This document shows, piece after piece, positions 4,618-50,392 of a stretch of 64,000 bases of DNA; the stretch's first letter is position 1; the number at the start of each line of letters is the position of its first letter. Position numbers and translations under genes: made by a program. Source of the stretch: Gammaproteobacteria bacterium (GTDB lineage: Bacteria > Pseudomonadota > Gammaproteobacteria > GCA-001735895); contig JASFKL010000001.1 in assembly GCA_050118655.1 (NCBI GenBank), forward strand, positions 186 through 64,185, read 5' to 3'. A model generated the notes under the pieces. It searched no databases. It saw nothing but the letters and a program-made list of their open reading frames with translations, and was not told where the DNA came from.

Positions 4618-5673
4618 ATGAGCCTTGAAATTGATCCCAAACAAATAAAATCCTTCTCTCCGATCAATTCTCTGAATCCAGAAAACGCTCAAGAATTAGT
4701 CAACAAAATTACCGCTACCCCGATCCAGGCGGGCCACTATATCTTCAAGAAAGGTGATATGGACAAGGCGCACGTCTACGTGCTCTCGGGCGAAGTGGAG
4801 CTGGTGCAGGACAAAAAGGTGGTCAAGACCATCAAGGCGGGCTCCCCGGAAGGCATGCAACCGCTGGCGCACGGATTTCCCCGGCCGGTGTCGGCGCGCG
4901 CCAAGGTCGCCTCGGTGGTCACCAAGATCAACAGCGACATGCTCGACATCATGCTGACCTGGGACCAGTCGGGCAGTTACTCGGTAGAACCCGTCGACGA
5001 AGAAGACGAAGAAACCGACTGGATGACCCGCATCCTGCAAACCCGGGCCTTCCATCGCATTCCGCCGGCCAATATCCAGGCGATGTTCATGCGCATGGAA
5101 TCGGTCAGCTTCAAGCCCGGCGAGAAAGTGATCGAACAGGATGCCGAGGGCGATTATTTCTACATCATCAAGGAAGGCCGTTGCCTGGTCACCCGCTCCA
5201 CGCCGGCCAACCCGAATGGCGTCAAGCTGGCGACCCTGTCGGTGGGCGACAGTTTCGGCGAGGAAGCGCTGATCTCCGACAGCAAGCGCAACGCGACGAT
5301 CACGATGCTGTCCGAGGGGCATTTGATGCGCCTCAACAAGGAGGATTTCAACTCGCTGCTGAACGAACCGCTGCTCAACTGGGTCGATTACGACGAGGCC
5401 AGGAAACTGGTCGATGCGGGCGCCGTCTGGTTCGACGTACGCCTGCCTACCGAGCACAAGGCCAAGCACATCAAGGGCAGTATCAATATCCCGCTGATTT
5501 TCCTGCGCATGAAGGCCAATTCGCTCGATACCGAAAAGAAATACGTCATCTATTGCGATACCGGCCGGCGCAGCTCCGCGGCCTCTTTTCTACTCAACGA
5601 AAAGGATATCGAGACCTTCGTATTGCGCGACGGCGTCGATACCGCCGAGCCCTCCGACCTGGTTACCAGCTAA
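4618..5673 (+). CDS. Tandem cyclic-nucleotide-binding (CAP-ED) domains fused to a C-terminal rhodanese domain with catalytic Cys (CDTGRRS)
   Basis: Two cNMP-binding cores (YIFKKGDMDKAHVYVLSGEVELV... and YFYIIKEGRCLV...VGDSFGEEALI with the hallmark FGEEAL); rhodanese motif VWFDVRLPTEH...YVIYCDTGRRSSAAS. Confidence 0.8.
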   Translation: MSLEIDPKQIKSFSPINSLNPENAQELVNKITATPIQAGHYIFKKGDMDKAHVYVLSGEVELVQDKKVVKTIKAGSPEGMQPLAHGFPRPVSARAKVASVVTKINSDMLDIMLTWDQSGSYSVEPVDEEDEETDWMTRILQTRAFHRIPPANIQAMFMRMESVSFKPGEKVIEQDAEGDYFYIIKEGRCLVTRSTPANPNGVKLATLSVGDSFGEEALISDSKRNATITMLSEGHLMRLNKEDFNSLLNEPLLNWVDYDEARKLVDAGAVWFDVRLPTEHKAKHIKGSINIPLIFLRMKANSLDTEKKYVIYCDTGRRSSAASFLLNEKDIETFVLRDGVDTAEPSDLVTS

Positions 5674-5702: not shown

Positions 5703-7307
5703 TCAGCCGGCGTAGCCCGGGATTAGCGATTCGTCTATTTCGTCGATCTGCTCCGGATCGAGAAACTCCTCGGCGTAGTCGAGGTAAACCCGCTCGCGAA
5801 TGAAGATCTCGAAGATATCGGGATCGATGTGATTGTCCTTTTTCATGAATCCCATGATGCGCAGGCACTCGGACAGTTTCTTGCCATGCTTGTATGGCCG
5901 ATCGCTGGCGGTCAGGGCCTCGAAAATATCGGCCACCGCCATAATCCGGGCCTGTACCGACATTTCCTCCCTTTTGAGCCCGCGCGGGTATCCCGTGCCA
6001 TCCATTTTTTCATGATGTCCGCCGGCATACTCGGGTACGTTTTGCAAATTGCGGGGAAACGGCAGCGATTCCAGCATCTTGATGGTCGCGACGATATGGT
6101 TGTTGATGACTTCCCGCTCTTCATCGTTCAGCGTGCCGCGCTTGATACACAGGTTCATGACCTCGTCGTCGGTCAAAAGCGGCCGCGTCTCGCCGGACCC
6201 GTCCACCCATTCGAGCCCGGCGAGTTGCTTTACCCGGTCGATATCCTCGTCGCTCATGAATTCGCCGCCGACATTGGCCTTGCGCAAAAATTCGAAATCC
6301 TGCCGGTATTGCTCGCGACGGGATTCGAGATCCCTGTCCAGTTGTTCGACATCGGCCTTCGATCCGTTTGCCGCTAGACGTTTTTTCAAGTATTCGATTT
6401 CGGCGTCGCGCTGCAGGATCACGAAACGGGTTTCCAGCGCATTGATACGATCGTAAATCGTTTCCAGCTTGGTGGCCTTGTCCATCACGTACTCGGGGGT
6501 AACCACCTTGCCGCAATCGTGCAACCAGGCAGCGGTCTCGAGTTCGTAGCGATCCTTGTCGGTAATTCTGAAATCCTTCAGCGGCCCCTTGTCGTCCTGG
6601 TGCGCGGCCTCGGCAAGCATCATCGTCAATACCGGAATCCGCCGGCAATGACCGCCGGTATAGGGCGACTTGTCGTCGATCGCCGAGGCGATCATGCGGA
6701 TAAAAGATTCGAACAGGATTTGCAGTTCCGAGATCAGTCTCCGCTGGGTCAGCGCGACGGCTGCCTGGGAAGCCAGTGACTCGGCGAGTTGCTGTTCGAC
6801 GGCGCTGAAAACTTTGACCTCGCCGGTTTGCTCGTTCCTGGCATTGATCAATTGCAGCACGCCGATGATTTCCTTCTCGTGGTCCTTGAGCGGAAAGGTC
6901 AGCATGGAGCGGGTGCGGTAACCGGTCTTTTCGTCGAAGGCCCGCGTGCCCGAGAAATCGAAGCCGTCCTCGTTATAGGCGTCGGCAATGTTGATGGTTT
7001 CTCCGGACAGTACGCAGTGGGAGACGACGTTGGCATGGTTATCCTTGCCTTCGATCGACAGCGGTATCGCCGGAAAAGTGATTTCGTTACCCGAGGTACC
7101 GCCCATCTGTATATCGAGCGAATCGTTGGAAATGATCTCGAATCTGAGTTCGCCGTCGTTCAGAAAATACAGCGAGCCGCCATCCGCGTGGGTGAGCGAT
7201 TTTGCTCCCATCATGATCAGCTCGAGCAGCTTGGGCGTATCGTTTTCCGCCGACAGCGCGATGCCGATTTCATTTAACCGATCAATCCTGTCGAGCAATT
7301 CTGACAT
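5703..7307 (-). CDS. GAF-domain / HD-GYP-domain phosphodiesterase (probable c-di-GMP-specific)
   Basis: N-terminal GAF-like fold; HD motif AAWLHDCGKVVTPEY and GYP motif GGHHEKMDGTGYPRGL. Confidence 0.85.
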   Translation of the reverse strand: MSELLDRIDRLNEIGIALSAENDTPKLLELIMMGAKSLTHADGGSLYFLNDGELRFEIISNDSLDIQMGGTSGNEITFPAIPLSIEGKDNHANVVSHCVLSGETINIADAYNEDGFDFSGTRAFDEKTGYRTRSMLTFPLKDHEKEIIGVLQLINARNEQTGEVKVFSAVEQQLAESLASQAAVALTQRRLISELQILFESFIRMIASAIDDKSPYTGGHCRRIPVLTMMLAEAAHQDDKGPLKDFRITDKDRYELETAAWLHDCGKVVTPEYVMDKATKLETIYDRINALETRFVILQRDAEIEYLKKRLAANGSKADVEQLDRDLESRREQYRQDFEFLRKANVGGEFMSDEDIDRVKQLAGLEWVDGSGETRPLLTDDEVMNLCIKRGTLNDEEREVINNHIVATIKMLESLPFPRNLQNVPEYAGGHHEKMDGTGYPRGLKREEMSVQARIMAVADIFEALTASDRPYKHGKKLSECLRIMGFMKKDNHIDPDIFEIFIRERVYLDYAEEFLDPEQIDEIDESLIPGYAG

Positions 7308-7400
7308 CTACTGGCACCTGCCCCTCGCGGAGGCCGAGCTACGCGAGCTTCGAAAGTCGCTCTATTCTAGGTGAATCCCCGGGCATTTCAATTCCGGGCC

Positions 7401-7416
7401 GGTTAAATTTTTAACC
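7401..7416. promoter_or_regulatory. Inverted repeat GGTTAAA-TT-TTTAACC in the divergent promoter region between the HD-GYP gene and the CHASE2 kinase operon
   Basis: 7-bp perfect arms with 2-bp spacer, seen directly in an AT-rich 327-bp intergenic region. Confidence 0.3.
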
Positions 7417-7634
7417 CCAAGCACTGGTAAAAAAGCGCATTCAACCTTATAGTTTAGAGGCATCACGATTCATAAGAATACCGGGGGGGATCCAAGCTGT
7501 TAACCAGTTCAAGGTGTTCGCATAAACTATTGAATATTATACGAATCGGATTTCTTCATTTTCCGGTCGCACACCCAGTAAAGTACGACTATAACAAGCT
7601 GGGTGACTAATAAGAATCAAACTATGGAGACGGT

Positions 7635-10265
7635 ATGAAAACCCGTTTTTGGAGTAGCGACTGGTTCGCCGGGCTGCTGATTACCATCGTGATTGTGGCG
7701 GTCTCGGGTTCCGGCCCCTTCCAAAGCCTGGAGCGCTCGTTTTACGACTGGGGCGTGCGCTCGACCGACAGGACTCCCTCCGACAAGATTGCGATCATCG
7801 CCATCGACGACGAGAGTATCGACAACCTGGGCCGCTGGCCCTGGCCGCGCGACCTCCACGCCGAATTGATCAACCGGCTTTCCGAGGGCGGAGCCAAGGT
7901 CATCGGTCAAACCGTATTTTTCCTCGAACCCCAGGTCGATCCGGGGTTGACCTATATCCGCGAACTGATCGAGTTTTTCTCTACCGCGAGCTTCGGCGAC
8001 GTTCCCGCCGATATCGATGCGCTGGGCGCGATGCTGGAACTGGGCGGCAACAATCGCAAGATAAACGATATCCTCGAATTCTATCTCCAATCGAGCCTGA
8101 ATACGCGTCTCAACCAGGATATCGAAACCCTGAAATCCCGAATGTTCGAAGCCGAGCAGGCGCTCAACACCGACGCCAAGCTCGCCGAGAGCATGGAAAA
8201 AGCCAAGAACGTCGTGCTGGCGATGGTCTTTTACCTGGGCATCCCGCGCGGCAAGCCCGACGAGGAACTGCCCGACTACGTGCTGAAAAACTCGATCAGC
8301 CAGATCCGTGACCGCGTATCGGCACAACCCAACGGCCTGTTCCCGATTCCGACCATCGATGCGCTGACACCGATTCCGGAAATCGGCCGCTACGCGGCGG
8401 CGATCGGCCATCTCAATACCCTGCCCGATATCGACGGCGGGGTTCGTTCAGAGCCGCTGGTGCTGCAGTACTACGACCGCTTCTTCCCGTCGATATCGCT
8501 GCAAATCGCCGCGCGCAGCCTGAACCTCGACACCAACGACATCCGCGTCAATCTGGCGGAGAGCGTCGAACTCGGCAGTCTGGCAATCAAGACCGATACC
8601 CAGCTGCAGATGAATACCTTTTACTACTCGAATCGCGATGGTTTTCCGGCATTTCCGGTGGATTCGTTTTACGACGTATTCACCGGCAAGATTCCGATCG
8701 AAAAGTATCGCGGCAAGATCGTTTTGATCGGCCCCACCGCCACCGGCGTCGGTACGCCGCAGGTCACTCCCATCGATCCCGCAATGGCGCCGGTACTGAC
8801 GCTCGCACACTCGGTTTCGAGCATCCTCAAGGAGGATTTTTTCATCGAGCCCGAATGGGGCTTCTGGGCGCGCATGGGTACCTTCCTCGTGGTTGCGCTC
8901 TACCTGATGCTGCTGATGCCGCGGTTAAAGGCCGGTGTCGCTTTCGTGGTCACCACGGTGCTGGTGCTGGCACTGATCGCCACCCATTACATACTGATGA
9001 CCGGCAGCACGATGTGGATTCAGTTGATGACCCCGGGGGCCCTGCTGGTGATCGGTTACCTGTTGATCACCACCAAGAGATTCCTGGTCACCGAGCGCGG
9101 CAAGGCCAAATCCGACGTGGAATCGGCCGAGAGCAACCGGATGCTGGGTATCGCATTTCAAACCCAGGGTCAACTCGACATGGCGTTCGAAAAATTCCGC
9201 AAGTGCAGCCCGGTCGACGAACAGGTGCTCGAGGCGATGTACAACCTGGCGCTGGATTTCGAGCGCAAGCGGCAATTCAACAAGGCCACTTCGGTGTACC
9301 AGTACATGGCCAAGCACGACAAGAGCTTCCGTGATATCGAAACCCGTATGAACCGCGCGCAGAAGATGGAAGAAACCGTCATGCTCGGCGGTAGCGGCGG
9401 ACATGCGGGCGGCACCCTGCTGCTCGATGGCAGCGGTGTCGAAAAACCGATGCTGGGCCGTTACGAAGTCGAAAAGGAACTCGGCAAGGGCGCCATGGGT
9501 ATCGTCTACCTGGGCAAGGACCCCAAGATCAGCCGGGTCGTGGCGATCAAGACCATGGCCCTGGCGCAGGAGTTCGAAGCCGACGAACTCGACGAGGTCA
9601 AGGAGCGGTTCTTCCGCGAGGCGGAAACCGCGGGGCGCCTGAATCATCCCAATATCGTAACCATTTACGATGCCGGCGAGGAGCACGATCTCGCCTATAT
9701 CGCGATGGAATTTCTCAAGGGCTACGACCTTACGAAACACTGCAAGCCCGATAACCTGCTGGAAATGAATACCGTGGTCAGCATCGTCCAGCGCGCCGCC
9801 GAGGGCCTCGATTTCGCGCACCGGCAAAACGTCGTGCACCGCGATATCAAGCCGGCCAACATCATGTACGAGCCGGAATCGGATACCATCAAGATTACCG
9901 ATTTCGGTATCGCGAGAATTACCGATTCGAGCAAGACCAAGACCGGGATGGTACTCGGCACGCCCTCTTACATGTCTCCCGAACAACTGGCGGGCAAAAA
10001 AGTCGATGGACGTTCCGACCTGTTTTCACTCGGCGTCATGCTTTACCAGATGCTTTGCGGATCCCTGCCCTTCAAGGCGGATTCGATGGCCAGTCTGATG
10101 TTCAAGATCACCAACGAAGAGGCCCCGGACATTCGCAGCGTGCGCGAGGATATACCCCATGGCCTGGTCGAAGTAATCGCCTTGGCCATGACCAAGGATG
10201 CCGACCAGCGATATCAGACAGGAGCCGATTTTGCCAATGCATTGAAAGCATTTCTGAATAATTGA
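7635..10265 (+). CDS. CHASE2 sensor domain - transmembrane - TPR-like linker - Hanks-type Ser/Thr protein kinase
   Basis: CHASE2 signature IIAIDDESIDNLGRWPWPRDLHAELI; hydrophobic helices around residues 410-470; kinase motifs LGKGAMGIVY, HRDIKPANIM, DFGIA, GTPSYMSPE; RBS GGAGA upstream of the ATG. Confidence 0.85.
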   Translation: MKTRFWSSDWFAGLLITIVIVAVSGSGPFQSLERSFYDWGVRSTDRTPSDKIAIIAIDDESIDNLGRWPWPRDLHAELINRLSEGGAKVIGQTVFFLEPQVDPGLTYIRELIEFFSTASFGDVPADIDALGAMLELGGNNRKINDILEFYLQSSLNTRLNQDIETLKSRMFEAEQALNTDAKLAESMEKAKNVVLAMVFYLGIPRGKPDEELPDYVLKNSISQIRDRVSAQPNGLFPIPTIDALTPIPEIGRYAAAIGHLNTLPDIDGGVRSEPLVLQYYDRFFPSISLQIAARSLNLDTNDIRVNLAESVELGSLAIKTDTQLQMNTFYYSNRDGFPAFPVDSFYDVFTGKIPIEKYRGKIVLIGPTATGVGTPQVTPIDPAMAPVLTLAHSVSSILKEDFFIEPEWGFWARMGTFLVVALYLMLLMPRLKAGVAFVVTTVLVLALIATHYILMTGSTMWIQLMTPGALLVIGYLLITTKRFLVTERGKAKSDVESAESNRMLGIAFQTQGQLDMAFEKFRKCSPVDEQVLEAMYNLALDFERKRQFNKATSVYQYMAKHDKSFRDIETRMNRAQKMEETVMLGGSGGHAGGTLLLDGSGVEKPMLGRYEVEKELGKGAMGIVYLGKDPKISRVVAIKTMALAQEFEADELDEVKERFFREAETAGRLNHPNIVTIYDAGEEHDLAYIAMEFLKGYDLTKHCKPDNLLEMNTVVSIVQRAAEGLDFAHRQNVVHRDIKPANIMYEPESDTIKITDFGIARITDSSKTKTGMVLGTPSYMSPEQLAGKKVDGRSDLFSLGVMLYQMLCGSLPFKADSMASLMFKITNEEAPDIRSVREDIPHGLVEVIALAMTKDADQRYQTGADFANALKAFLNN

Positions 10266-10279
10266 GCCCAGACTGTTTG

Positions 10280-11104
10280 ATGAATTTGCAAAACAAGATA
10301 ACCATCCAGGGCCTGACTGACACGGGGATAGTGCGCGGCAAGAACGAGGACGCGATCGGTTATGACAGCGCGCTGGGTCTCGTGGTTCTCGCCGATGGCA
10401 TGGGAGGTCATCGCGGCGGCGAAATAGCCAGCAGTATGACCGTCGATACGGTTATCAATCTCCTGCAGCAGCGGCTGCCGGAAATCAACTCCGGCGACGT
10501 CGACGAAGCCAGTGGATTTTCGATGGAGTCGATTTGTATCCAGGATGCCGTGGTCGCGGCCAACGAACTGGTCTACAAGACCGCCGAGGCCAATCCCGAA
10601 CACAAGGGAATGGGCACCACGATCGTGGTATTGCAGTTCTACAACAATTCCTTCTCCCTCGCCCATATCGGCGACTCGCGCTGTTATCGTCTGCGCAATG
10701 ACAAGCTCGAACAGATTACCAAGGATCACTCCCTGTTACAGGAACTCATCGACCGCGGCTTCTATACGCCCGAAGAAGCGCGCAATTCGATGAACAAGAA
10801 TCTCGTGACGCGTGCCCTGGGCATCGATCCGATCGTCATGCCGGACATACAGGAGGATATAGTCCTGAAAAATGACATATATTTGCTATGTTCAGATGGG
10901 TTAACGGATTTAGTCGAAGACGAAGATATATACTTAACTATTAAGCAATTTAGTGCTAATCTAGAAGAAGCTGCCAAGCAATTGATTACAAAGGCAAACC
11001 AGAATGGCGGAAAGGATAATATTTCGGTAATGCTGTGCCGGATTGACGATGATTTTTCGTCCCGGCAAGGCTGGTTCAACAAGATTGTCGGCTGGTTCGA
11101 CTAA
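10280..11104 (+). CDS. PP2C-family Ser/Thr protein phosphatase
   Basis: GLTDTGIVRGKNEDA...VLADGMGGHRGGEIAS...LLCSDGLTD; the track ORF starts at TTG 10262, but the ATG at 10280 is preferred; immediately downstream of the kinase stop (10265), within 4 nt of it in the TTG model. Confidence 0.85.
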   Translation: MNLQNKITIQGLTDTGIVRGKNEDAIGYDSALGLVVLADGMGGHRGGEIASSMTVDTVINLLQQRLPEINSGDVDEASGFSMESICIQDAVVAANELVYKTAEANPEHKGMGTTIVVLQFYNNSFSLAHIGDSRCYRLRNDKLEQITKDHSLLQELIDRGFYTPEEARNSMNKNLVTRALGIDPIVMPDIQEDIVLKNDIYLLCSDGLTDLVEDEDIYLTIKQFSANLEEAAKQLITKANQNGGKDNISVMLCRIDDDFSSRQGWFNKIVGWFD

Positions 11105-11150
11105 CGGATTACACACCCAGTACAAACTACTCTACAGGCTGGATAATAAA

Positions 11151-11873
11151 ATGGTCGCAAAACTGATCACTACTTCAAGCACGGGCGAAAAAACCGAGTA
11201 TGAACTGGTCAATGAAACCACCACGATTGGGCGTAAGCCGGGTAACGATATTCAAATCGATAATCTGTCAGTCAGCGGCAGGCATGCGCAGGTAATCACC
11301 ATCCTCGAAGATTCATTTCTGGAAGATCTCGGCAGCACCAACGGCACTTACGTCAACGGCAAACTGGTAAAAAAACACGCGCTCGAAGACGGCGACAGTA
11401 TCACCCTGGGCAAGTATCAAATCACCTACCAGAATAACTCCGGCGGCGGTGAACAGGATTTCGAACAAACCATGATTATCCGCCCCGGCGAAGCGGGCAT
11501 GCCCGAAGAAGCCGGCAGCAAGGAAATCGACAAGTCGGTGCAAAAAATTTCAGCGGCGATCGCCTCGGAGGCAGCCAGCACAGCCTCGTCGCCGATGTCT
11601 AACAAGGAAGCCTGCCTGCAATTGCTCAGCGGCGCCAACGCCGGCAAGGAGCTGGTATTGACCAAGGCCCTGACCACCATCGGCCAGCCGGGTGTGCAGG
11701 TGGCGGCGATCACCCGCCGTCCGCAAGGCTTTTTCCTGATTCACGTCGATGGCGGCCCGAACAACAATGTCCCGAAAGTCGGCGGCTCGGAGATCGGCTC
11801 GAACGCGCACGAACTCAAGAGCCACGACATTATCGAAGTAGCCGGCGTAAAAATGGAGTTCTACCTCAAATAA
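11151..11873 (+). CDS. FHA-domain protein (phospho-Thr reader); second half is FHA-like
   Basis: TTIGRKPGNDIQIDNLSVSGRHAQV...STNGTYVNGKLV is an FHA core; start chosen at MVAKL (11151), after the PP2C stop at 11104. Confidence 0.75.
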   Translation: MVAKLITTSSTGEKTEYELVNETTTIGRKPGNDIQIDNLSVSGRHAQVITILEDSFLEDLGSTNGTYVNGKLVKKHALEDGDSITLGKYQITYQNNSGGGEQDFEQTMIIRPGEAGMPEEAGSKEIDKSVQKISAAIASEAASTASSPMSNKEACLQLLSGANAGKELVLTKALTTIGQPGVQVAAITRRPQGFFLIHVDGGPNNNVPKVGGSEIGSNAHELKSHDIIEVAGVKMEFYLK

Positions 11874-11913
11874 AGCCGTTCCTGCTCGTCCGCATTGAAA
11901 CCGGGGGCAAACA

Positions 11914-14145
11914 ATGCAATTACAGCGCATAGTCAGGCTGGTGCTTAGCGCACTGATCCTGCTGGTCATCCTGCTCGACACCTCCGGAGTTTACAAGTAT
12001 CCATTCATCAAGCAGCTGGAAAACTGGACTTACGACGCGCGGCTGAACTTTACCCGTCCCGATACCGTCGACGATCGCGTGGTTATCGTCGATATCGACG
12101 AAACCTCGCTCGCCGAGGTCGGCCGCTGGCCCTGGGGTCGCGACCAGCTCGCGCGCATCGTCGACAACCTGTTCGACTTTTACGGGGCCGACGTGGTCGC
12201 CTTCGATATCGTATTCGCCGAAAAAGACGAGAGCTCCGGACTGGAACAGTTCGAGCAGCTGGCGCGAACCACGTTGCGCGGCGACGAGGAATATATCGAG
12301 GCGCTCGATAAGATCCGGCCGAGCCTCAAACACGACGAAATTTTCGCGCAGAGCCTGGTCGGTAAAAACGTCGTTCTCGGCTATTACTTCAAGTCCAGGT
12401 TGCAGGAAGGAGAAAGCGGTGTCACCGGCCTCCTGCCCCCCGCATTGACCAGGATGGACAGGCAGTGGAGCGAACGCCTGCCGATCAACAAGGCGGTAGG
12501 CTACGGCGGCAACCTGGAAATACTGCAAACCTCGGCACGCTCCGGCGGCTACTTCGACAACCCCTTCGTCGATGCCGACGGCGTATTTCGCCGCGTGCCG
12601 CTGGTGCAGTCCTACCAGGGCTACCTGTTCGCCTCGCTGGCTCTCGCCACTACCCAGGCGTATCTCGACGCCGACGGTATCGAGCTGGCGATCGAAACCG
12701 AGGGAACGCGCGGCGAGAACGAATATTTCGCGCTGGAGACGATTAACCTGAAGAATCACAAGATTCCCGTGGACGCCAACGGCGCGGTGTTCGTGCCCTA
12801 CCGCGGCAGGCAGGGAAGCTTTCCCTATATCCCCGCCCACGAAGTGCTGAGCCGCAAGACCAACCCGCTGGCGCTAAAGAACAAGATCGTACTGATCGGC
12901 ACCTCGGCACCGGGCCTGCTCGACCTGCGCTCTACTCCAGTACAAAACATTTATCCCGGGGTCGAGGTCCATGCCAATATCATTTCCGGCATCCTCGACG
13001 ATCGTATCAAGCACAAGCCGGCCTGGACGGTGGGTTACGAACTCGTGTTACTGATAGTCATCGCGGTCAGCATGGCCTTGCTGTTGCCGCTGGTTTCGCC
13101 GCTGCTGGCGGCGACCGGGACGCTCGGGATTACCGGCCTGGTGGTCGCCGGAACCTTCGTCGCCTGGAACAACAACCTGATCCTGCCGCTGGCGAGCCCG
13201 CTGCTGCTGATTCTGTTGCTGTTCATGCTGCACATGTCCTACGGATTCTTCATCGAGTCCCGTGGCAAGCGGCAGCTCGCTAACCTGTTCGGGCACTACA
13301 TACCGCCCGAACTGGTCGACGAGATGAGCGAATCGCCCGAGGAATATTCGCTCGAGGGCGAGAACCGTGAAATGACCGTGCTGTTTTCGGACGTGCGCGG
13401 ATTCACGTCGATCTCGGAAGGCATGGACCCGAAACAGTTGACCCAGCTCATGAACGCGCTGTTGACGCCGATGACGCGCGTCATCCACAAGAACCGGGGT
13501 ACGATAGACAAGTACATGGGAGATGCCATCATGGCCTTCTGGGGCGCGCCGCTGGCCAATGCCGAGCATGCCCGGCACGCGCTCTATGCCGCACTCCAGA
13601 TGATGGAAGAACTGAAGATAATGCAGGAAGACTTCAAGCAACGCGGCTGGCCGACGGTCAACATCGGTATCGGCTTGAACACCGGCGACATGAACGTCGG
13701 CAACATGGGATCGGAATTCCGCATGGCTTATACCGTGCTCGGCGACGCGGTCAACCTGGGTTCGAGGCTCGAGGGCCTGACCAAGGAATACGGCGTCAAC
13801 ATCATCGTCAGCGAATCCACCAAGGCGGCGATACCCGAATTCGTATTCCGAGAACTCGACCTGGTCAGGGTGAAAGGCAAGAACGAACCGGTCGCAATTT
13901 TCGAACCGGTCGGGCACAAAAACGATCTCGACAAGTCGGTCACCTCGGAGATCAGCGAATACCGCAAGGCATTGATGAACTTTCGCTCCCAGTCCTGGGA
14001 CAAGGCCGAGCTCGATTTCTTCAACCTCAACCGCATCAACCCGGACCGGCAGCTATACCAGGTCTACCTCGAACGTATCGCGGTCTACCGCAGGGAGCCG
14101 CCCGGAGAGGGCTGGGACGGCGTTTTTACGCACACCACGAAGTAA
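11914..14145 (+). CDS. CHASE2 sensor domain - transmembrane - class III nucleotidyl cyclase (probable adenylate cyclase)
   Basis: CHASE2 signature VVIVDIDETSLAEVGRWPWGRDQLARIV; TM segments around residues 365-440; cyclase core MTVLFSDVRGFTSISE...TIDKYMGDAIMAFWGAP...YTVLGDAVNLGSRLE with Lys in KxxGD. Confidence 0.85.
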   Translation: MQLQRIVRLVLSALILLVILLDTSGVYKYPFIKQLENWTYDARLNFTRPDTVDDRVVIVDIDETSLAEVGRWPWGRDQLARIVDNLFDFYGADVVAFDIVFAEKDESSGLEQFEQLARTTLRGDEEYIEALDKIRPSLKHDEIFAQSLVGKNVVLGYYFKSRLQEGESGVTGLLPPALTRMDRQWSERLPINKAVGYGGNLEILQTSARSGGYFDNPFVDADGVFRRVPLVQSYQGYLFASLALATTQAYLDADGIELAIETEGTRGENEYFALETINLKNHKIPVDANGAVFVPYRGRQGSFPYIPAHEVLSRKTNPLALKNKIVLIGTSAPGLLDLRSTPVQNIYPGVEVHANIISGILDDRIKHKPAWTVGYELVLLIVIAVSMALLLPLVSPLLAATGTLGITGLVVAGTFVAWNNNLILPLASPLLLILLLFMLHMSYGFFIESRGKRQLANLFGHYIPPELVDEMSESPEEYSLEGENREMTVLFSDVRGFTSISEGMDPKQLTQLMNALLTPMTRVIHKNRGTIDKYMGDAIMAFWGAPLANAEHARHALYAALQMMEELKIMQEDFKQRGWPTVNIGIGLNTGDMNVGNMGSEFRMAYTVLGDAVNLGSRLEGLTKEYGVNIIVSESTKAAIPEFVFRELDLVRVKGKNEPVAIFEPVGHKNDLDKSVTSEISEYRKALMNFRSQSWDKAELDFFNLNRINPDRQLYQVYLERIAVYRREPPGEGWDGVFTHTTK

Positions 14146-14151
14146 TACCGT

Positions 14152-15390
14152 TTACCAGCAGGCGCGTAATTCCCGCGCCAGTATGCCGACGCCTTTTTCG
14201 AGTTCCTCCTCGCTCTGCGCATAGTTCATGCGCACGCAACTCTCGGCGTGCGCGGACACGTTCTGCTGCCCGGGAAAGAAGTACTTGCCAGGCACGACCA
14301 GTAAACCGTTGCGCTTGAGCCGCTGGTAGAGTTCGGTAGTGGTCACGCCGAGATCTTCGAACCACAGCCACAGGAACATCGATCCCTCGGGTTTGTGGAT
14401 GTGCAGCCGCGGATCCTCGATCGCCTCGCGCAGCAGCCTGACCGCGAGTTCCGAGCGCTGCAGGTAAAACGGCCGGATGATATCGTCGCAAAGCGGTTGC
14501 AGGGCATCGTCGACGATCAGCTGGCGGACGATTTCGGCGCCGAGACCCGCCGGCGCGAGGCTGGTTATCGCGGTCATGTTGGAAAAATAGCGAATCAACT
14601 CCTCGTTGGCGATCACGATCCCGGTACGCGCGCCGGGCAACCCGAGCTTCGACAGGCTCATGCAAACGATGCAGTTATCGTTCCAGAAGGGATTGACGCC
14701 GGTGAATATGATGTTCGGGAAAGGCGTGCCGTAGGCATTGTCGATCAACAGCGGAACGTCGTGGTCGCGGGCGATCTGGTCGAGTTGCCCGCACTCGGCG
14801 TCGGTGAGCACGTTGCCGCTCGGATTGGTAGGCCGAGAAACGCAAATCAGGCCCACGGAATCGTCGGCCTCGAGCTGCTCGAAGTCGACCTGGTACTTGA
14901 AAAACCCGTCATCGAGGTGCTGAATCCTGGCCTCCTGGCTGGCGAGCAATCCCTCTTCGATACCGACGTCGCAGTAGCCGATATACTCGGGCACCAGCGG
15001 GATCAGAACGCGTTTACGGCCTTGCCTCGAGCGGCCGGCAAAAGAATTGAATAGAATGAAGAACGAACTCTGGCTACCGTGGGTCAAGGCGATATTGCGG
15101 CTGCTGATCGGCCAGCCGTAACGATCCCGGAAGTACTCGGCCAGCGCTTCGAGAAAGCCCGCCCTGCCCTGCGGCGCATCGTAGTTGGAAAGCGCCTCGA
15201 CCAGGGCGCCCGATTCCCGCAGTTTGTCGAGCACCTGGCCCACTATCTTCTTGACCTCGGGGATCGAAGCGGGATTGCCGCCGCCGAGCATGACCACGCC
15301 GGGTTGCGCGAGACCCTCGCTCAAATCGTCCATCAGGTGGGTAATACCGGAGTAACCGTTGAAATGTTCGCCGAATTCAGAAAATTTCAT
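14152..15390 (-). CDS. avtA: Valine--pyruvate aminotransferase (class I/II aminotransferase)
   Basis: Near full-length collinearity with E. coli AvtA: FGEHFNGYSGITHLMDDL...MLGGGNPASIPE...CMSLSKLGLPGARTGIV. Confidence 0.88.
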   Translation of the reverse strand: MKFSEFGEHFNGYSGITHLMDDLSEGLAQPGVVMLGGGNPASIPEVKKIVGQVLDKLRESGALVEALSNYDAPQGRAGFLEALAEYFRDRYGWPISSRNIALTHGSQSSFFILFNSFAGRSRQGRKRVLIPLVPEYIGYCDVGIEEGLLASQEARIQHLDDGFFKYQVDFEQLEADDSVGLICVSRPTNPSGNVLTDAECGQLDQIARDHDVPLLIDNAYGTPFPNIIFTGVNPFWNDNCIVCMSLSKLGLPGARTGIVIANEELIRYFSNMTAITSLAPAGLGAEIVRQLIVDDALQPLCDDIIRPFYLQRSELAVRLLREAIEDPRLHIHKPEGSMFLWLWFEDLGVTTTELYQRLKRNGLLVVPGKYFFPGQQNVSAHAESCVRMNYAQSEEELEKGVGILARELRACW

Positions 15391-15533
15391 TACGCCTGCT
15401 TAGAGTCGATAACAATTACAATTACTGACAGCATTTGAGAAAAATGCAACCGTTTTCGATCCCGCAACAACCACCCGGTTGACTGGCCCGTCCAATCTGG
15501 CAAGATTTGCGCGACGATAAATCCGGTGCGCGC

Positions 15534-15944
15534 ATGCAATATACCCACGATCTGGAATTCAAGGTACGCGATTACGAATGCGACATGCAAGGCGTGGTCA
15601 ACAACGGCGTCTACCAGAATTATCTCGAGCATGCGCGCCACGAGTTCCTGCAGGCCGAGGGTATCAACTTCGCTCAGGTGACTGCTTCGGGAATCAACCT
15701 GGTGGTGATTCGCGCGCAACTGGATTACCGGAAATCGCTGGTTTCGAACGACCGTTTCGTGGTGCGTAGCCTGTTGCGGCGGATATCCAGGGTCCGCTTC
15801 GAATTCCAGCAGGACATTTTTCGCTTGCCGGATGAAGAACTCGTGCTCAACGCGCTGATCACCGGCACCGCGGTCAACCGCAACGGCCGGCCCTGCGTGC
15901 CGGGCGAACTCGAAAAGCTGTTCAGCGCCGCCGAAGACGCCTGA
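15534..15944 (+). CDS. Acyl-CoA thioesterase, 4HBT/YbgC hot-dog family
   Basis: MQYTHDLEFKVRDYECDMQGVVNNGVYQNYLEHARHEF is a typical 4HBT N-terminus; start chosen at the internal Met of the listed ORF. Confidence 0.7.
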   Translation: MQYTHDLEFKVRDYECDMQGVVNNGVYQNYLEHARHEFLQAEGINFAQVTASGINLVVIRAQLDYRKSLVSNDRFVVRSLLRRISRVRFEFQQDIFRLPDEELVLNALITGTAVNRNGRPCVPGELEKLFSAAEDA

Positions 15945-16116
15945 GCCTTGCGGACAGGCTCGCCGGCGCGACGATCGCAAGGAATACTCGCCGCGTCGTG
16001 ATCTTGTCCCGACGGATTACGGCGCGAGGCTCTTCGCCGGTATTCCGTACGCTGCAGTTTGTATTTGCATGCGAACCGGGACGCTGAGAAAATAGTCTTC
16101 ATTTTCGGGAGATGAT

Positions 16117-16902
16117 ATGGGTTTATTATCCGGCAAGAAGGCATTGATCGTCGGCATCGCCAGCAATCGCTCTATCGCTTACGGGATAGCGCAGGCCATG
16201 CATCGCGAAGGCGCCGAACTCGCCTTCAGTTATGCCAATGACAAGCTCAAACCCCGAGTGGAGAAATTCGCCGCCCAATTCGAATCCAGTATCGTGCTTC
16301 CCTGCGACGTCACCATCGACGACGAAATCACCGGCCTGTTCGACCAATTGTCGGATCACTGGTCCAGCCTCGACGTGCTGGTGCACTCGGTGGCTTTCGC
16401 GCCGCGCGAGGCCCTGTCGGGCGACTACCTGAATAATCTCGATCGCGAGGGATTTCGCATCGCCCACGACATCAGTTCCTACAGCCTGGCGGCGCTGGCC
16501 AAGGCAGCCCGGCCGATGATGCAAAATACCCGAGGCGCGATCGTTACCATGTCTTACCTGGGCTCGGAACGCGCACTGCCGAACTACAACATCATGGGGG
16601 TAGCCAAGGCCAGTCTCGAGGCCAACGTGCGTTACCTGTCGGCGGCACTGGGTCCGGAAGGCATCCGCGTGAATTCGATATCCGCGGGACCGATCAAAAC
16701 CCTGGCGGCGGCCGGTATAGGGGATTTCAAGAAGATTCTCGACGAGGTTGCCACCAATGCACCGCTGCGCAGAAACGTCACTATCGAGGACGTGGGCAAC
16801 GCGGCGGCATTTTTGTGCTCGGATTACGCCGCCGGTATCACCGGCGAGAATATCTACGTCGATTCCGGCTATAACATCGTCAGTATGGGGGTGCTCGAGT
16901 AG
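16117..16902 (+). CDS. fabI: Enoyl-[acyl-carrier-protein] reductase (NADH)
   Basis: [27 protein letters not shown]...[24 protein letters not shown]; RBS GGGAGA. Confidence 0.93.
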
Positions 16903-16921: not shown

Positions 16922-18799
16922 CTATTGCTCCTCCAGAGGCGTCCTGGTGACCTCCGCACGGCTGGTAATCAGATTGACCGTCGATCGGTACTCGGCTGCC
17001 GCTTCGGCCGTTTTAAGCCCTTCCAGGGCCTTCTCGTCGACGTTTGCGTCATTCGACATCACCGCGGACAATTCGACCACCACATATTCCCCTCCGGCCA
17101 GCACGAGGCCATCGTAAACCAGCCCCTGGTCGGGCTTCGGCATACTGAAAGCGAGATTGCGCACCGAGGCGTCGATATCGGCCTGATCGCGGGCGACGAA
17201 ACCGCGGTCCGTGATCTTCGCATTCCATTTGCCGGCCAGCTCTTCCAGCGACTCGCCGTTTTTGAGCGCCGCCAGCGCTTCGCGACCGGTGGTGGTGGCC
17301 AGTTCGCGCATCTTGCTGCGCCTGAGATCCTCGAGCACGAGATCGCGAACTTCCTCCAGAGGCTGTTGCTGCGACGGACGATGCTCGTTGAGGCGGATAA
17401 ATACGATTCGATTTTTATCCAGCTCGATACCCTCGCTATTCAGACCCTTTTGCAGCACCTCGTCGGAAAACGCCTGTTGACGAACCTTCGGCTCGGCGGC
17501 GATACCCTGGCCCGAAAAGCGGCTGAACCAGTCGCTGGTCTGCAATTTCAGCCCGAGTTGGTCGGCCGCCGGTAGCAGCGAATCCGGTTGTTCGTAGGCG
17601 AGATTGGAGACCGTTTCGATCAAATCGTAAATCTGGTTCTCTGCGCGTTGGGTCTTGATCTCGTCCTCGAGTTCCGCCTTGACCTCGTCGAACGGGCGTG
17701 TCTTCCCCCCCTCGATCGAATTCAGTTGGATCAGATGCCAACCGAAACTGGTCTTGACCGGTTCGCTGAGTTCGCCAACCTTCATCGAAAACAGCGCCGA
17801 TTCGAAACTCGGCACCATGTCTCCTTTTTCGATCTCGCCCAGGTTGCCGCCGTCGGCGGCCGATGCCGGATCCTCGGAATATTCCTTCGCCATCTCCGCA
17901 AAGCTTTCTCCATCGACGATCCGTTTACGGATCTTCTCGATTTGCGCGAGCGCCTGTTCGCTGTTCGAATCGTCCGCCTTGATCAGGATATGGCTGGCGG
18001 TTCGGGTCTCGGGCGTGGTGTAGGCAGCGATATTTGCCTCGTAACGGGCGCGAACGTCCTTCTCCGGTACCTCGATCGATTTCTTGACGTTTTCCAGGCT
18101 GAGCTCGATATAGTCGATTTTCACCTCTTCCGGAGTCATGTAGCGCTCCTTCTGGGACTGGTAACGGCTTTCGATTTCCGCATCGTCGATCTCGATACTC
18201 GCCGGGTCGACGCTGTAGCCGAGCGTTCTCAGTTTGCGGGTCTGGTTGCGCAGGCTGGCGAACTGCTTTTGCTCCGCGGGCACCAGAAATGCGGTTGCTT
18301 CCAGTCCCGTCTGAAACTGCTGCCTCGCGCCATTGACTCTCATTTCCTGCTCGAAGCCGAGCGGCGAGTATCCCAGCGAACGGAGCTGGGCCTCGTAAAC
18401 CTGGCTTTCGAATTTACCGTCGCGCTGGAACACGTCCATCGCTCGTATCATGCGGTTCAATTCGGCATCGCCGATTCGGTAGCGTTGCTTCTCGACGTAC
18501 TGGCGCAGCGCGTTTTCCTCGATCATTTGATTGAGAACTTGCTCGCGCAGCATTTGTTCGGTACCGAAGGATGCGGGAATGCTGCCGCCGAACAGGCGGG
18601 ACAGGCGCTGGCGATATCTGCTGTAAGCCTGATCGAGGTCCTGGGTGGTGATTTCCTGGCCGTTGACGGTCGCCGCGGGCGCGGCTTCGCCGCCGCCGAG
18701 ATAGGAATTGACTCCCCACAGGGCGAAGGGGATGCTGATCAGGAAAATAACGCCGTAGGCAATCCAGCCAGTTACTTTTTCTCGAATTGCTTGCAGCAT
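16922..18799 (-). CDS. ppiD: Periplasmic chaperone / peptidyl-prolyl isomerase PpiD
   Basis: N-terminal anchor MLQAIREKVTGWIAYGVIFLISIPFALWG; SurA-like and parvulin-like regions; position after hupB as in E. coli/Pseudomonas. Confidence 0.9.
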   Translation of the reverse strand: MLQAIREKVTGWIAYGVIFLISIPFALWGVNSYLGGGEAAPAATVNGQEITTQDLDQAYSRYRQRLSRLFGGSIPASFGTEQMLREQVLNQMIEENALRQYVEKQRYRIGDAELNRMIRAMDVFQRDGKFESQVYEAQLRSLGYSPLGFEQEMRVNGARQQFQTGLEATAFLVPAEQKQFASLRNQTRKLRTLGYSVDPASIEIDDAEIESRYQSQKERYMTPEEVKIDYIELSLENVKKSIEVPEKDVRARYEANIAAYTTPETRTASHILIKADDSNSEQALAQIEKIRKRIVDGESFAEMAKEYSEDPASAADGGNLGEIEKGDMVPSFESALFSMKVGELSEPVKTSFGWHLIQLNSIEGGKTRPFDEVKAELEDEIKTQRAENQIYDLIETVSNLAYEQPDSLLPAADQLGLKLQTSDWFSRFSGQGIAAEPKVRQQAFSDEVLQKGLNSEGIELDKNRIVFIRLNEHRPSQQQPLEEVRDLVLEDLRRSKMRELATTTGREALAALKNGESLEELAGKWNAKITDRGFVARDQADIDASVRNLAFSMPKPDQGLVYDGLVLAGGEYVVVELSAVMSNDANVDEKALEGLKTAEAAAEYRSTVNLITSRAEVTRTPLEEQ

Positions 18800-18865: not shown

Positions 18866-18942
18866 TGGCGGAGTGGACGGGACTCGAACCCGCGACCCCC
18901 GGCGTGACAGGCCGGTATTCTAACCAACTGAACTACCACTCC
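18866..18942 (-). tRNA. tRNA-Asp (GTC)
   Basis: Manual fold: 77 nt, anticodon loop cuGUCac, 3' CCA encoded; near-identical to E. coli tRNA-Asp. Confidence 0.85.
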
Positions 18943-18950
18943 AGATTAGG

Positions 18951-19026
18951 TGGTGGGTGCTGACGGGATCGAACCGCCGACCCTCGCCTTGTAAGGGCGA
19001 TGCTCTCCCAGCTGAGCTAAGCACCC
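18951..19026 (-). tRNA. tRNA-Val (TAC)
   Basis: Manual fold: 76 nt, anticodon loop cuUACaa, 3' CCA encoded; close to E. coli tRNA-Val(UAC). Confidence 0.85.
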
Positions 19027-25705: not shown

Positions 25706-25791
25706 TGGTGCGAAAGGAGAGACTCGAACTCTCACATCGTAAAGATACCAGAACCTAAATCTGGCGCGTCTACCAATTCCGCCACTTTCGC
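25706..25791 (-). tRNA. tRNA-Leu (TAG)
   Basis: Manual fold: 86 nt with long variable arm, begins GCGAAAGTGGCGGAATTGGTAGACGC, anticodon loop uuUAGgu, CCA encoded. Confidence 0.8.
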
Positions 25792-25892
25792 AGTCGTTTC
25801 GTGCCTGCCTGATTACCGGACGCCGTGCCGCGCTCCGCGTCGCCGCGCGGAGTCGAAAACTAACGGCGCCTGCATCGCAGGCGCCGTGTGTA

Positions 25893-25969
25893 TGGGGTGG
25901 ACGATGGGGATCGAACCCACGACAACAAGAATCACAATCTTGCACTCTACCAACTGAGCTACGCCCACC
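25893..25969 (-). tRNA. tRNA-His (GTG)
   Basis: Manual fold: 77 nt including the -1 G, anticodon loop uuGUGau, ends ...CCACCCCA as in E. coli tRNA-His. Confidence 0.85.
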
Positions 25970-25975
25970 ATAATT

Positions 25976-26052
25976 TGGCACGCCCGGCAGGATTCGAACC
26001 TGCTACCCTCGGCTTAGAAGGCCGATGCTCTATCCAAATGAGCTACGGGCGC
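25976..26052 (-). tRNA. tRNA-Arg (TCT)
   Basis: Manual fold: 77 nt, anticodon loop cuUCUaa, CCA encoded. Confidence 0.83.
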
Positions 26053-26055
26053 TTC

Positions 26056-26195
26056 GGATACCTCTCTCACGGCGTATTTTAGCCGATTGCTGCGTTGCCG
26101 CCGTGCTCGGATCCTCATGTATGTCTTTATACACTGCGGTCCTGCGCGCGGCGGCGCCTTGCACTCAACTAAAATACGCCGTGAGAGAGGCATCC
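26056..26195. repeat. About 140-bp element bounded by 27-bp terminal inverted repeats (1 mismatch; 22-bp perfect core CCTCTCTCACGGCGTATTTTAG / CTAAAATACGCCGTGAGAGAGG) with a nested inner IR; MITE-like or large RNA hairpin in the tRNA operon spacer
   Basis: Perfect 22-bp IR at 26061-26082 vs 26169-26190 seen directly; inner IR GCCGCCGTGC / GCGCGGCGGC; abuts the 5' end of tRNA-Arg. Confidence 0.6.
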
Positions 26196-26393
26196 TCCAG
26201 TTCAAATTCCGACCGGTCATCCTAAACCTTTTGTATCCCCGGATTGCCGCCGTAGGGGAGGCAACCTGGATTCGTCTTGCCGGCGATAATTCCATTAATA
26301 TACGCGCCAATCGCGTATTCGGATGCCGGGAACCTGCCGTTTCCTCGAACCCCCGATATCCGGGGTGCAATGATAGCAAATTCCCGACAAAAT

Positions 26394-26470
26394 TGGTCGG
26401 GGTGGAGAGATTCGAACTCCCGACCCACTGCTCCCAAAGCAGTTGCGCTACCAGGCTGCGCTACACCCCG
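26394..26470 (-). tRNA. tRNA-Pro (TGG)
   Basis: Manual fold: 77 nt, anticodon loop uuUGGga, CCA encoded. Confidence 0.85.
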
Positions 26471-50264: not shown

Positions 50265-50392
50265 TGACCGCCGGGTATCGAAGCGGGACGCCGCGGATCG
50301 CCTTGATCCCGGTCAAATTGTATCCGCGGGTCATGCCGATATAATTGCGCATTCTCGAAACCGGAATACCGGATTCATTATCGTGCCCTGAA

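Follow-up and report, generated by a model that had tools for sequence, protein, structure and literature searches.

In type VI secretion systems (T6SS), the threonine phosphorylation pathway (PpkA/PppA/Fha of P. aeruginosa and A. tumefaciens) groups the genes for a membrane Hanks kinase that carries a periplasmic sensor, for a PP2C phosphatase, and for a stand-alone FHA protein. A Thr residue phosphorylated by the kinase is afterwards read by an FHA domain (PMC3953482, PMC5995506); PpkA acts in this way on a membrane partner, to which Fha then binds (PMC3953482). The small actinobacterial FHA proteins GarA and OdhI have a conserved Thr motif of their own on the N-terminal side of the FHA domain. 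This motif is phosphorylated by a Hanks kinase, and the FHA domain is able to bind it; the targets of GarA and OdhI are TCA-cycle enzymes. In Synechocystis Cya1, an FHA domain is fused to a class III cyclase. Bdellovibrio DgcB (FHA-GGDEF) is a nucleotide cyclase gated by its FHA domain, being activated when that domain binds a phosphorylated peptide (PMC6733907). CHASE2 sensors followed by TM helices and a class III cyclase occur in Sinorhizobium meliloti CyaD1, CyaD2, and CyaK, which make cAMP on an external (plant) signal and whose reported partners are NsrA, in the outer membrane, and Clr, a Crp-like regulator (PMC13001267); a kinase-PP2C-FHA partner has not been reported for this system. 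In the cyanobacterial proteins alr1869, all4838, and tlr1540, an N-terminal CHASE2 domain is followed by a Hanks kinase (PMC2176072). These kinases are uncharacterized, and the survey that describes them mentions no link to a PP2C, FHA, or cyclase gene.

The window (the whole 64,000-nucleotide stretch of DNA from an uncultured gammaproteobacterium analyzed here) contains four genes on the forward strand whose predicted products are a CHASE2 receptor Hanks-type Ser/Thr kinase (7635..10265, 876 aa), a PP2C/PPM Ser/Thr phosphatase (10280..11104, about 274 aa), a two-domain FHA adaptor (11151..11873, 240 aa), and a CHASE2 receptor class IIIb adenylate cyclase (11914..14145, 743 aa). The intergenic gaps are 14, 46, and 40 nt and contain no terminator-like sites, a layout consistent with a single predicted operon. 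A 327-bp intergenic region (7308..7634) separates the kinase gene from a divergent gene on the reverse strand, and is presumed to hold the promoters of both. Promoter-like matches in this region are weak and confined to the minus strand, and it contains no Rfam family and no CRP-like site. Scans of the operon and its surroundings for a riboswitch, a CRP-like site, and internal terminators or promoters gave nothing above chance. An initial sequence-only reading had described two paralogous CHASE2 membrane sensors in one operon, one ending in a Hanks kinase and the other in a class III cyclase, with only PP2C and FHA genes between them. Both ORFs are present with exactly the ends given there, Pfam identifies these domains in them, the gene layout agrees, and the linkage is evolutionarily conserved.

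The kinase ORF matches CHASE2 over aa 17-422 (174.2 bits, cut-off 26.3) and Pkinase over aa 610-859 (191 bits). Hydropathy predicts TM1 within aa 5-32, a periplasmic CHASE2 region extending to about aa 408, and a TM cluster (aa 409-480) with three predicted TM helices between CHASE2 and the Hanks kinase domain; a conserved TPR-like linker (around aa 500-585) connects this cluster to the kinase domain. The Gly-rich loop (GKGAMG, 617-622), K639, HRDIKPAN (735-742), DFG (756-758), and SPE (781-783) are all in place, as expected of a Hanks-type Ser/Thr kinase, and the catalytic and activation-loop residues (the latter including T768/T770) are nearly invariant among 70 family members. The cyanobacterial CHASE2 Ser/Thr kinases have the same domain order, a likeness of architecture.

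The second gene matches PP2C (55 bits, cut-off 20.3) and PP2C_2 (43 bits), and the motifs RGKNED, DGMGG, GDSR, SDGL, and KDN, assigned by eye, identify its product as a probable PP2C/PPM phosphatase. Its start is ambiguous, the candidates being TTG at 10262, ATG at 10280, or a site further downstream, as called in relatives. In almost every CHASE2-kinase locus, the kinase gene is followed by a PP2C ortholog.

The adaptor, whose gene starts at 11151, comprises a canonical FHA domain (FHA1, aa 1-95), a variable Ala/Pro-rich linker, and a degenerate FHA-like domain (aa 150-240). FHA1 matches the Pfam FHA profile at 76.9 bits, and its pThr-contacting residues R28, S42, H45, and N64 are invariant across 16 diverse orthologs; fold and contact residues thus both predict a pThr-binding FHA domain. 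FHA1 is followed by the motif D-F-E-(K/Q)-T107-M108 (nt 11457-11474), in which T107 and M108 are conserved in at least 90% of sequences, including those from loci in which the kinase, PP2C, and FHA genes (the triad) occur without the cyclase. Profile comparison by hhalign relates the C-terminal domain to FHA1 (probability 96.8%, E = 3e-10), and in the AF2 model this domain is a β-sandwich with pLDDT 74-90; FHA1 and the linker are modeled with low confidence (mean pLDDT 60). In the C-terminal domain the S-x-x-H loop is deleted and the Arg is replaced by Gln or Lys, so that these pThr-contact residues are missing; the domain is FHA-like and probably does not bind pThr. Foldseek matches the model to the FHA domains of GarA, OdhI, FhaA, and DgcB, with GarA and OdhI the best. 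Like these two, the adaptor is a small FHA protein with its own conserved Thr motif; unlike them, it carries this motif after the FHA domain and has a second, degenerate FHA domain.

The cyclase ORF matches CHASE2 over aa 15-385 (204 bits, cut-off 26.3) and Guanylate_cyc over aa 485-658 (82 bits). Its predicted layout comprises TM1 within aa 1-28, a periplasmic CHASE2 region to about aa 368, three TM helices (aa 369-449), a cyclase-transducer-like linker, the catalytic domain (aa 485-658), and a helical C-terminal tail. An AF2 model of aa 1-460 (pLDDT 82.8, pTM 0.82) shows TM1, an α/β domain, and three long helices. Class IIIb cyclases have a substrate-defining Lys and Thr besides two metal-binding Asp and a transition-state Asn and Arg. 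All six residues are present (D493, D537, K533, T607, N614, and R618) and align with those of P. aeruginosa CyaB (3r5g, E = 7e-35), in which the adenylate-specific class IIIb pair corresponding to K533/T607 is also found. The protein is thus predicted to be a subclass IIIb adenylate cyclase of the homodimeric type, with the full set in one chain, and we infer that its product is cAMP; the class II cAMP phosphodiesterase and cNMP-binding proteins encoded beside its orthologs lend this indirect support. The architecture is that of CyaD1, CyaD2, and CyaK; plasmid-borne CHASE2 cyclases from rhizobia and other alphaproteobacteria share 30-36% identity with the protein over about 86-92% of its length. 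No NsrA- or Clr-like gene was seen among the genes flanking the operon, although such genes may lie elsewhere in the genome. Homology between the helical C-terminal tail and the TPR-like linker of the kinase, considered as a sign of a possible shared docking site, found no support (hhalign probability 14%).

The gene order STK-PP2C-FHA-AC is kept in close relatives and in Burkholderiales/betaproteobacterial MAGs, in which the kinase is 56-60% and the cyclase 45-50% identical to the proteins of the window. Among 60 cyclase-anchored metagenome loci with enough upstream DNA, the FHA gene lies directly upstream of the cyclase in 39, in the four-gene order and at a distance of about 40 nt. In three further loci the CHASE2 kinase is still adjacent to the cyclase but rearranged: in L114 and L126 the whole triad is convergent and downstream of the cyclase, and in L110 the kinase stands beside the cyclase with no PP2C or FHA gene. 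An intermediate ORF in L110 was considered as an FHA candidate; it is not FHA-like, and by eye is FecR-like. The remaining 18 loci have a cyclase with no triad nearby. Conversely, the triad occurs alone among housekeeping genes, with no cyclase, in MAGs of Terriglobia, Desulfobacteraceae, Elusimicrobia, and Woeseiaceae, and the adaptor must therefore have at least one other type of partner. All homologs come from uncultured organisms and bear generic names. A scan of genome contigs by kinase motifs found a CHASE2 kinase in at least 16 of at least 80 loci; among the matches listed, none was a cultured organism carrying all four genes. Among environmental beta- and gammaproteobacteria the module is both abundant and conserved.

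The flanking genes examined encode a CNB-rhodanese protein, a GAF-HD-GYP protein, an aminotransferase, and housekeeping proteins. The CNB-rhodanese protein (4618..5673, forward strand, 351 aa) has two cyclic-nucleotide-binding domains and a rhodanese domain (cNMP_binding, 98.7 bits over two stretches; Rhodanese, 48 bits). Its second CNB domain contains the phosphate-binding cassette FGEEAL...RNAT and its rhodanese loop is CDTGRRS, both read by eye, and it is a candidate cAMP reader. The divergent gene (5703..7307, reverse strand, 534 aa) encodes a predicted GAF and HD-GYP phosphodiesterase (GAF, 46.9 bits; HD_5, 152 bits) with intact HD...HHExxDGxGYP motifs and an insert of about 170 aa between them. 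These cAMP-related genes usually adjoin the four-gene set. Close relatives have a CNB-rhodanese ortholog adjoining the operon; in beta-type loci it lies downstream of the cyclase, and GAF-HD-GYP orthologs (55-61% identity) recur beside the operon. In 46 beta-type loci a class II cAMP phosphodiesterase gene directly follows the cyclase, and a GAF-MshEN-T2SSE ATPase and a pilin are encoded in 35 and 15 beta-type loci, respectively. The window has no ortholog of any of these three, and the single match in the search for them was the GAF domain of the HD-GYP gene.

Comparison with the T6SS pathway suggests how the four products may work together. The adaptor, with its intact pThr-binding residues and conserved Thr motif, resembles Fha, but has the additional degenerate FHA domain; the sensor of the kinase is CHASE2 rather than the PpkA periplasmic domain. 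No T6SS gene was found among the flanking genes examined, and the locus does not qualify as a type VI cluster; the linked output here is instead a receptor adenylate cyclase with cAMP-related genes. By analogy, the triad would work like a threonine phosphorylation pathway outside the T6SS. The position of the adaptor and PP2C genes between the two sensor genes suggests a wired connection between the branches, not two independent outputs. We lean, by a modest measure, toward the reading that the conserved operon re-uses a T6SS-like Thr-phosphorylation triad to modulate a receptor cyclase, with two periplasmic inputs converging on cAMP. Each CHASE2 domain would read its own periplasmic cue and set the dimerization-dependent activity of its cytoplasmic enzyme. 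The active kinase would autophosphorylate and phosphorylate Thr107 of the adaptor, the PP2C phosphatase reversing this, and cyclase output would rise or fall with the phospho-state of the adaptor, FHA1 binding pThr and the pseudo-FHA domain making protein contacts. The two inputs would be integrated by cAMP. Its readers would be the CNB-rhodanese protein and, probably, the HD-GYP enzyme through its GAF domain, providing a link to c-di-GMP; in betaproteobacterial versions the GAF-MshEN pilus-type ATPase would probably read cAMP too. The sequences themselves show the domain content, the intact catalytic and pThr-binding residues, the membrane topology from hydropathy, the separate ancestry of the two CHASE2 domains, and the conserved linkage; that proteins are phosphorylated or bound at each step, which way control runs, and that the product is cAMP, we infer.

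It is possible, and we suggest it only tentatively, that the two-FHA adaptor is a phospho-switch that, once the CHASE2 kinase has phosphorylated its Thr107, directly gates the neighboring cyclase, making the operon a coincidence detector for two different periplasmic cues. As with DgcB and Cya1, a pThr-reading FHA domain would control a nucleotide cyclase, and the adaptor model matches the DgcB FHA domain in structure; in those proteins, however, FHA and cyclase are fused, whereas the adaptor is a separate protein whose tie to the cyclase is drawn from gene order. Several observations count against the preferred reading as a whole. Comparison of triad-linked with triad-less cyclase orthologs revealed no distinguishing residue, Ser/Thr included, and nothing in the cyclase sequence marks a target of the adaptor or kinase; the triad does without a cyclase in other phyla, 18 of the 60 cyclase loci have no triad nearby, and the adaptor model is of low confidence in FHA1 and the linker.

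Both sensors are CHASE2 (PF05226) proteins by profile match above the cut-off and by predicted topology (an N-terminal TM helix, an extracytoplasmic region, and a TM cluster). Their CHASE2 regions align with each other over 430 columns (BLASTP E = 2e-16, 23% identity), and a lack of similarity to one another or to CHASE2 HMMs, which would have spoken against the sequence-only reading, was not observed. That reading had also placed a D-x-D...GRWPW-x-RD signature at residue 55 of both proteins. The GRWPW-x-RD motif is present in both, but at residues 66-73 of the kinase and 70-77 of the cyclase; a literal D-x-D occurs in the cyclase only (D60-I-D62), the kinase having A56-I-D58-D59 at the aligned positions. 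The further suggestion of internal duplication and domain swapping does not hold, as local duplication of CHASE2 is rejected by the low pairwise identity (23-25%) and by neighbor-joining bootstraps. In a tree of 185 CHASE2 domains, the cyclase-type clade (bootstrap 100/100) joins beside distant kinase-type CHASE2 domains and is united with the operon-type kinase clade in 0/100 replicates; this tree covers relatives of the two families only, histidine-kinase and GGDEF-type CHASE2 being left out, and cannot say whether the two are mutual nearest relatives among all CHASE2 domains. The separate clades, together with the existence of the triad without the cyclase and of the cyclase without the triad, imply that the operon was assembled from two pre-existing modules.

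The sequence-only reading took one extracellular cue to be broadcast in parallel into phospho-Thr and cNMP signals, and parallel broadcast of a single cue is somewhat disfavored by these comparisons. In its full form, with both CHASE2 domains binding the same periplasmic cue, no cross-wiring, and PP2C and FHA serving the kinase branch only, we regard this explanation as unlikely. Both are bona fide CHASE2 domains with a common invariant polar core, and in 47 periplasmic alignment columns one and the same residue is conserved by both families. Against this stand 24 columns in which the families conserve different residues and 116 in which just one family is conserved (140 in all), as do the low identity, the deep separation of the clades, and a helical insert of about 45-65 aa in the kinase CHASE2 that is absent from the cyclase. 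No solved CHASE2 structure was found by sequence search, and a literature search yielded nothing relevant. In favor of the parallel explanation, kinase and cyclase are probably co-transcribed, and since the triad manages on its own in other lineages, contact between adaptor and cyclase is not a necessity; yet it is the FHA gene that directly precedes the cyclase gene in the 39 loci noted above.

Two further explanations fare worse. Kinase and cyclase might pair through their CHASE2 and TM regions, the heterodimers silencing both enzymes and so giving mutual inhibition or ratio sensing. Class III cyclases with six catalytic residues in one chain are homodimers, and Hanks receptor kinases are activated by dimerization; both outputs therefore need homodimers, as such silencing presupposes. 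The two proteins also belong to one domain family with a common 1+3 TM topology, and are likely to be co-expressed from one operon. Low identity and family-specific conservation, however, do not suggest a preserved common interface, and each protein is found without the other in many lineages, making a heteromeric receptor improbable. Equally hard to credit is that two independent signaling systems became neighbors by chance and were inherited together: both modules are autonomous elsewhere and the cyclase bears no triad-specific signature, but gamma- and betaproteobacterial lineages keep the linkage even where CHASE2 identity has fallen to about 42-47%, and it survives inversion of the triad in L114 and L126 while the flanking genes differ.

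On the preferred reading, in which the triad modulates the cyclase, the four-gene set probably links protein phosphorylation to cAMP signaling; it is widespread among environmental bacteria and has so far escaped study. Without real coupling, what remains is an ordinary pairing of receptor architectures already known. If the phospho-switch is true, it would be the first described bacterial Hanks kinase pathway that uses a separate FHA protein to control a receptor class III cyclase, and its cAMP would enter c-di-GMP turnover and, in betaproteobacteria, type IV pilus-like machinery. The neighboring genes (CNB-rhodanese, GAF-HD-GYP, class II phosphodiesterase, GAF-MshEN ATPase, and pilin) point to control of surface behavior, and suggest a route joining the cAMP and c-di-GMP networks. 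With two different CHASE2 receptors and easily assayed outputs (cAMP and adaptor Thr phosphorylation), the operon would be a practical system for finding CHASE2 signals, and the module could test whether Ser/Thr phosphorylation and cAMP signaling are hard-wired together in bacteria.

Four co-oriented genes occupy window 7635-14145. The first (7635-10265) encodes an 876-residue CHASE2 kinase, in which Pfam identifies a CHASE2 domain (residues 17-422) and a protein kinase domain (residues 610-859), and the last (11914-14145) a 743-residue CHASE2 cyclase (CHASE2, residues 15-385; class III cyclase domain, residues 485-658). These assignments confirm the sequence-only reading that two CHASE2 proteins with kinase and cyclase outputs are separated only by PP2C phosphatase and FHA protein genes. 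Both intervening genes were assigned by Pfam; from the sequence, the PP2C gene most likely starts at ATG 10280 (alternative starts exist), and the gene for the 240-residue FHA protein starts at ATG 11151. A GRWPW-x-RD signature, previously placed at residue 55 of both receptors, is indeed present in both, but at residues 66-73 of the kinase and 70-77 of the cyclase. The intergenic gaps are 14, 46, and 40 nt, with no terminator-like site in any of the three (consensus scans were at chance level overall), and it is likely that the four genes form one operon. Neither a riboswitch nor a CRP-like site was found near it. The window proteins correspond to NCBI MAG proteins with generic names.

Elsewhere in the window, tRNA clusters of two and four genes (18869-19026 and 25709-26470, - strand) flank a block of four ORFs that, by size and order, resemble lon, clpX, clpP, and trigger factor; of these, only Lon was identified by Pfam, in the syntenic locus L001. 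None of three long ORFs, of 491, 487, and 610 residues at 50345-51820 (+), 55752-57215 (-), and 61087-62919 (-), matches a Pfam family at E <= 1e-5, and some may not be genes because they overlap opposite-strand ORFs.

The N-terminal halves of the two receptors align with each other (E = 2e-16, 23% identity), bearing out their proposed paralogy. The accompanying proposal of internal duplication and domain swapping is unsupported. CHASE2 regions were gathered from related loci and by searching 1.84 billion representative proteins, and those of the two receptors in the window were added; 206 regions were aligned, and the 185 non-redundant ones were used for neighbor-joining trees with 100 bootstraps. 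In these trees, limited to CHASE2 relatives of the kinase and cyclase families, all cyclase-type domains fall into one clade (100/100) that joins next to distant kinase-type domains (L018, a deltaproteobacterial MAG, and P0226) and is united with the kinase domains sharing the cyclase operon in 0/100 bootstraps. In Desulfobacteraceae and Terriglobia MAGs there are CHASE2 kinases that match the CHASE2 domain of the window cyclase better (E = 1e-30 to 1e-35) than its own neighbor does. Judged from sequence, the paralogy is real but ancient.

Close relatives (77-96% identity) are all uncultured Gammaproteobacteria, in which six genes stay together: CNB-rhodanese, GAF-HD-GYP, kinase, PP2C, FHA, and cyclase. 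A genome scan covered one genome per species, with matches mostly drawn by kinase motifs. Among the matches listed, the four-gene order occurs in Burkholderiales and betaproteobacterial MAGs (kinase 56-60%, cyclase 45-50% identity) but in no cultured host, and MAGs of Terriglobia, Desulfobacteraceae, Elusimicrobia, and Woeseiaceae have the kinase-PP2C-FHA triad with unrelated housekeeping genes, and no cyclase, after it. All relatives are metagenomic. A metagenome scan anchored on the cyclase CHASE2 domain yielded 80 loci (42-82% identity), 60 of which have at least 900 bp upstream and were counted. The FHA gene lies directly upstream of the cyclase on the same strand in 39 of the 60; three retain an adjacent but rearranged CHASE2 kinase (in L114 and L126 the entire triad is downstream of the cyclase and convergent, and L110 has the kinase without a PP2C or FHA gene); and the other 18 lack a nearby triad. 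Cyclases without the triad form in part separate subclades and are in part nested among triad-linked cyclases, which argues that the operon is a fusion of two modules, each able to stand alone, kept over long evolutionary distances.

Some CHASE2 receptors appear to have a different partner set. In L018 (4621-5658) and L110 (9096-9689), a gene directly upstream of a distant CHASE2 kinase stands in place of the downstream PP2C/FHA pair; the L018 product contains FecR and LysM domains (Pfam), and that of L110 is FecR-like by eye only. In a Zixibacteria MAG (L020:3368-4809), a two-FHA protein and a calcineurin-like (Metallophos) phosphoesterase, replacing PP2C, precede the kinase.

The window kinase retains the Gly loop, K639, HRDIKPAN, DFG, SPE, and activation-loop threonines, and these motif residues are nearly invariant among 70 full-length family members; the TPR-like linker between membrane and kinase domain is conserved in the same alignment, and no homology of this linker to the cyclase tail was found. 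PPM motifs are retained in the PP2C. The catalytic set of the window cyclase (D493, D537, K533, T607, N614, and R618) matches Pseudomonas aeruginosa CyaB (3r5g) residue for residue (E = 7e-35). Its Lys/Thr pair is the signature by which class IIIb enzymes, among class III cyclases, are recognized as adenylate-specific, and because one chain carries all six residues the cyclase should act as a homodimer. By hydropathy, each receptor has a single TM segment near the N-terminus and a TM cluster further along. An AF2 model covering residues 1-460 of the cyclase (pLDDT 82.8, pTM 0.82), in which TM1, an alpha/beta domain, and three long helices are seen, agrees with a predicted periplasmic CHASE2 domain.

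The FHA protein, here termed the adaptor, shows high conservation: 455 proteins make up its 90% cluster, and a profile search gave at least 8000 candidates, with 120/120 of the matches listed full length. Across 16 diverse orthologues the FHA domain is canonical, with R28, S42, H45, and N64 invariant, and is directly followed by a nearly invariant D-F-E-(K/Q)-T107-M108 motif. This motif is present in three of four cyclase-less triads, being absent only from the Elusimicrobia locus (L015). A variable Ala/Pro-rich linker then leads to a conserved C-terminal domain, identified by profile comparison as a degenerate FHA domain that has lost the S-x-x-H loop (probability 96.8%, E = 3e-10). In the AF2 model this domain is a beta-sandwich (pLDDT 74-90) and the linker is disordered; the best structural matches are FHA domains of GarA, OdhI, FhaA, EmbR, and DgcB.

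Each receptor architecture has been described on its own: a survey lists CHASE2 kinases of cyanobacteria (PMC2176072), and in Sinorhizobium meliloti the CHASE2 cyclases CyaD1, CyaD2, and CyaK function together with NsrA and Clr (PMC13001267). The window cyclase shares 30-36% identity with plasmid-borne homologues from rhizobia and other alphaproteobacteria. Full-text searching of the literature on CHASE2, and on FHA with adenylate cyclase and Hanks kinases, turned up no account of the operon, subscription journals lying outside this search. The triad would work like the T6SS threonine phosphorylation pathway, in which TssL is phosphorylated by PpkA and the resulting pThr is bound by Fha (PMC3953482), but it does not belong to T6SS, since the flanking genes examined include no T6SS gene.

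On balance, we lean slightly toward a reading in which the two modules are coupled. Each CHASE2 domain would read its own periplasmic cue and control a dimerization-dependent enzyme; the kinase would phosphorylate adaptor T107, PP2C would reverse this, and the adaptor phospho-state may tune the cyclase, both by pThr binding at FHA1 and via the pseudo-FHA surface. In DgcB, phosphopeptide binding by an FHA domain activates a GGDEF cyclase (PMC6733907), and the GarA/OdhI-type self-binding switches, as structural matches of the adaptor model, offer a further precedent. That the adaptor gates the cyclase directly is a tentative proposal, and on the doubtful side. Parallel broadcast of one cue, as first suggested, is unlikely; in the periplasmic part, the two families share the same conserved residue at 47 columns and have different conserved residues at 24, and at 116 columns conservation is confined to one family. 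A kinase-cyclase hetero-receptor is improbable. Two points count against coupling, namely that no mark of triad linkage was found in the cyclase sequence, and that the triad clearly has other targets where the cyclase is absent. Mere adjacency of the two modules is improbable.

In the coupled-module reading, the CNB-rhodanese protein and enzymes with GAF domains would be the readers of cAMP. CNB-rhodanese (4618-5673, +) fuses two cNMP-binding domains, only the second with a canonical phosphate-binding cassette, to a rhodanese domain that keeps the active-site Cys loop CDTGRRS. This architecture is conserved beside the cyclase in many loci, and no characterized example was found. GAF-HD-GYP (5703-7307, -) has intact HD and HHExxDGxGYP motifs; a predicted helical insert of ~170 residues lies between them, so that Pfam HD_5 covers only the second half of the domain. 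A FimV homologue (FimV_N domain, 1204 residues; 38804-42418, -) is encoded amid housekeeping genes, at a distance of 25 kb from the operon. FimV is a type IV pilus polar hub protein needed for CyaB activation in P. aeruginosa, and a link to the operon is only a thought. In betaproteobacterial versions of the operon, downstream of the cyclase come genes for a class II cAMP phosphodiesterase (MBL fold; 46 loci), CNB-rhodanese, a GAF-MshEN-T2SSE (PilB/MshE-like) ATPase (35 loci), GAF-HD-GYP, and, in many cases, a pilin (15 loci) and a TPR protein (L003:18340-20748; L130:12223-12987, 14087-16483, and 18332-18784; and many other such loci). Together these genes make up a larger cAMP/c-di-GMP/pilus island; the phosphodiesterase, ATPase, and pilin are all absent from the window. 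This gene context supports cAMP as the probable cyclase product, and suggests that the output may bear on c-di-GMP turnover and pilus-like machinery.
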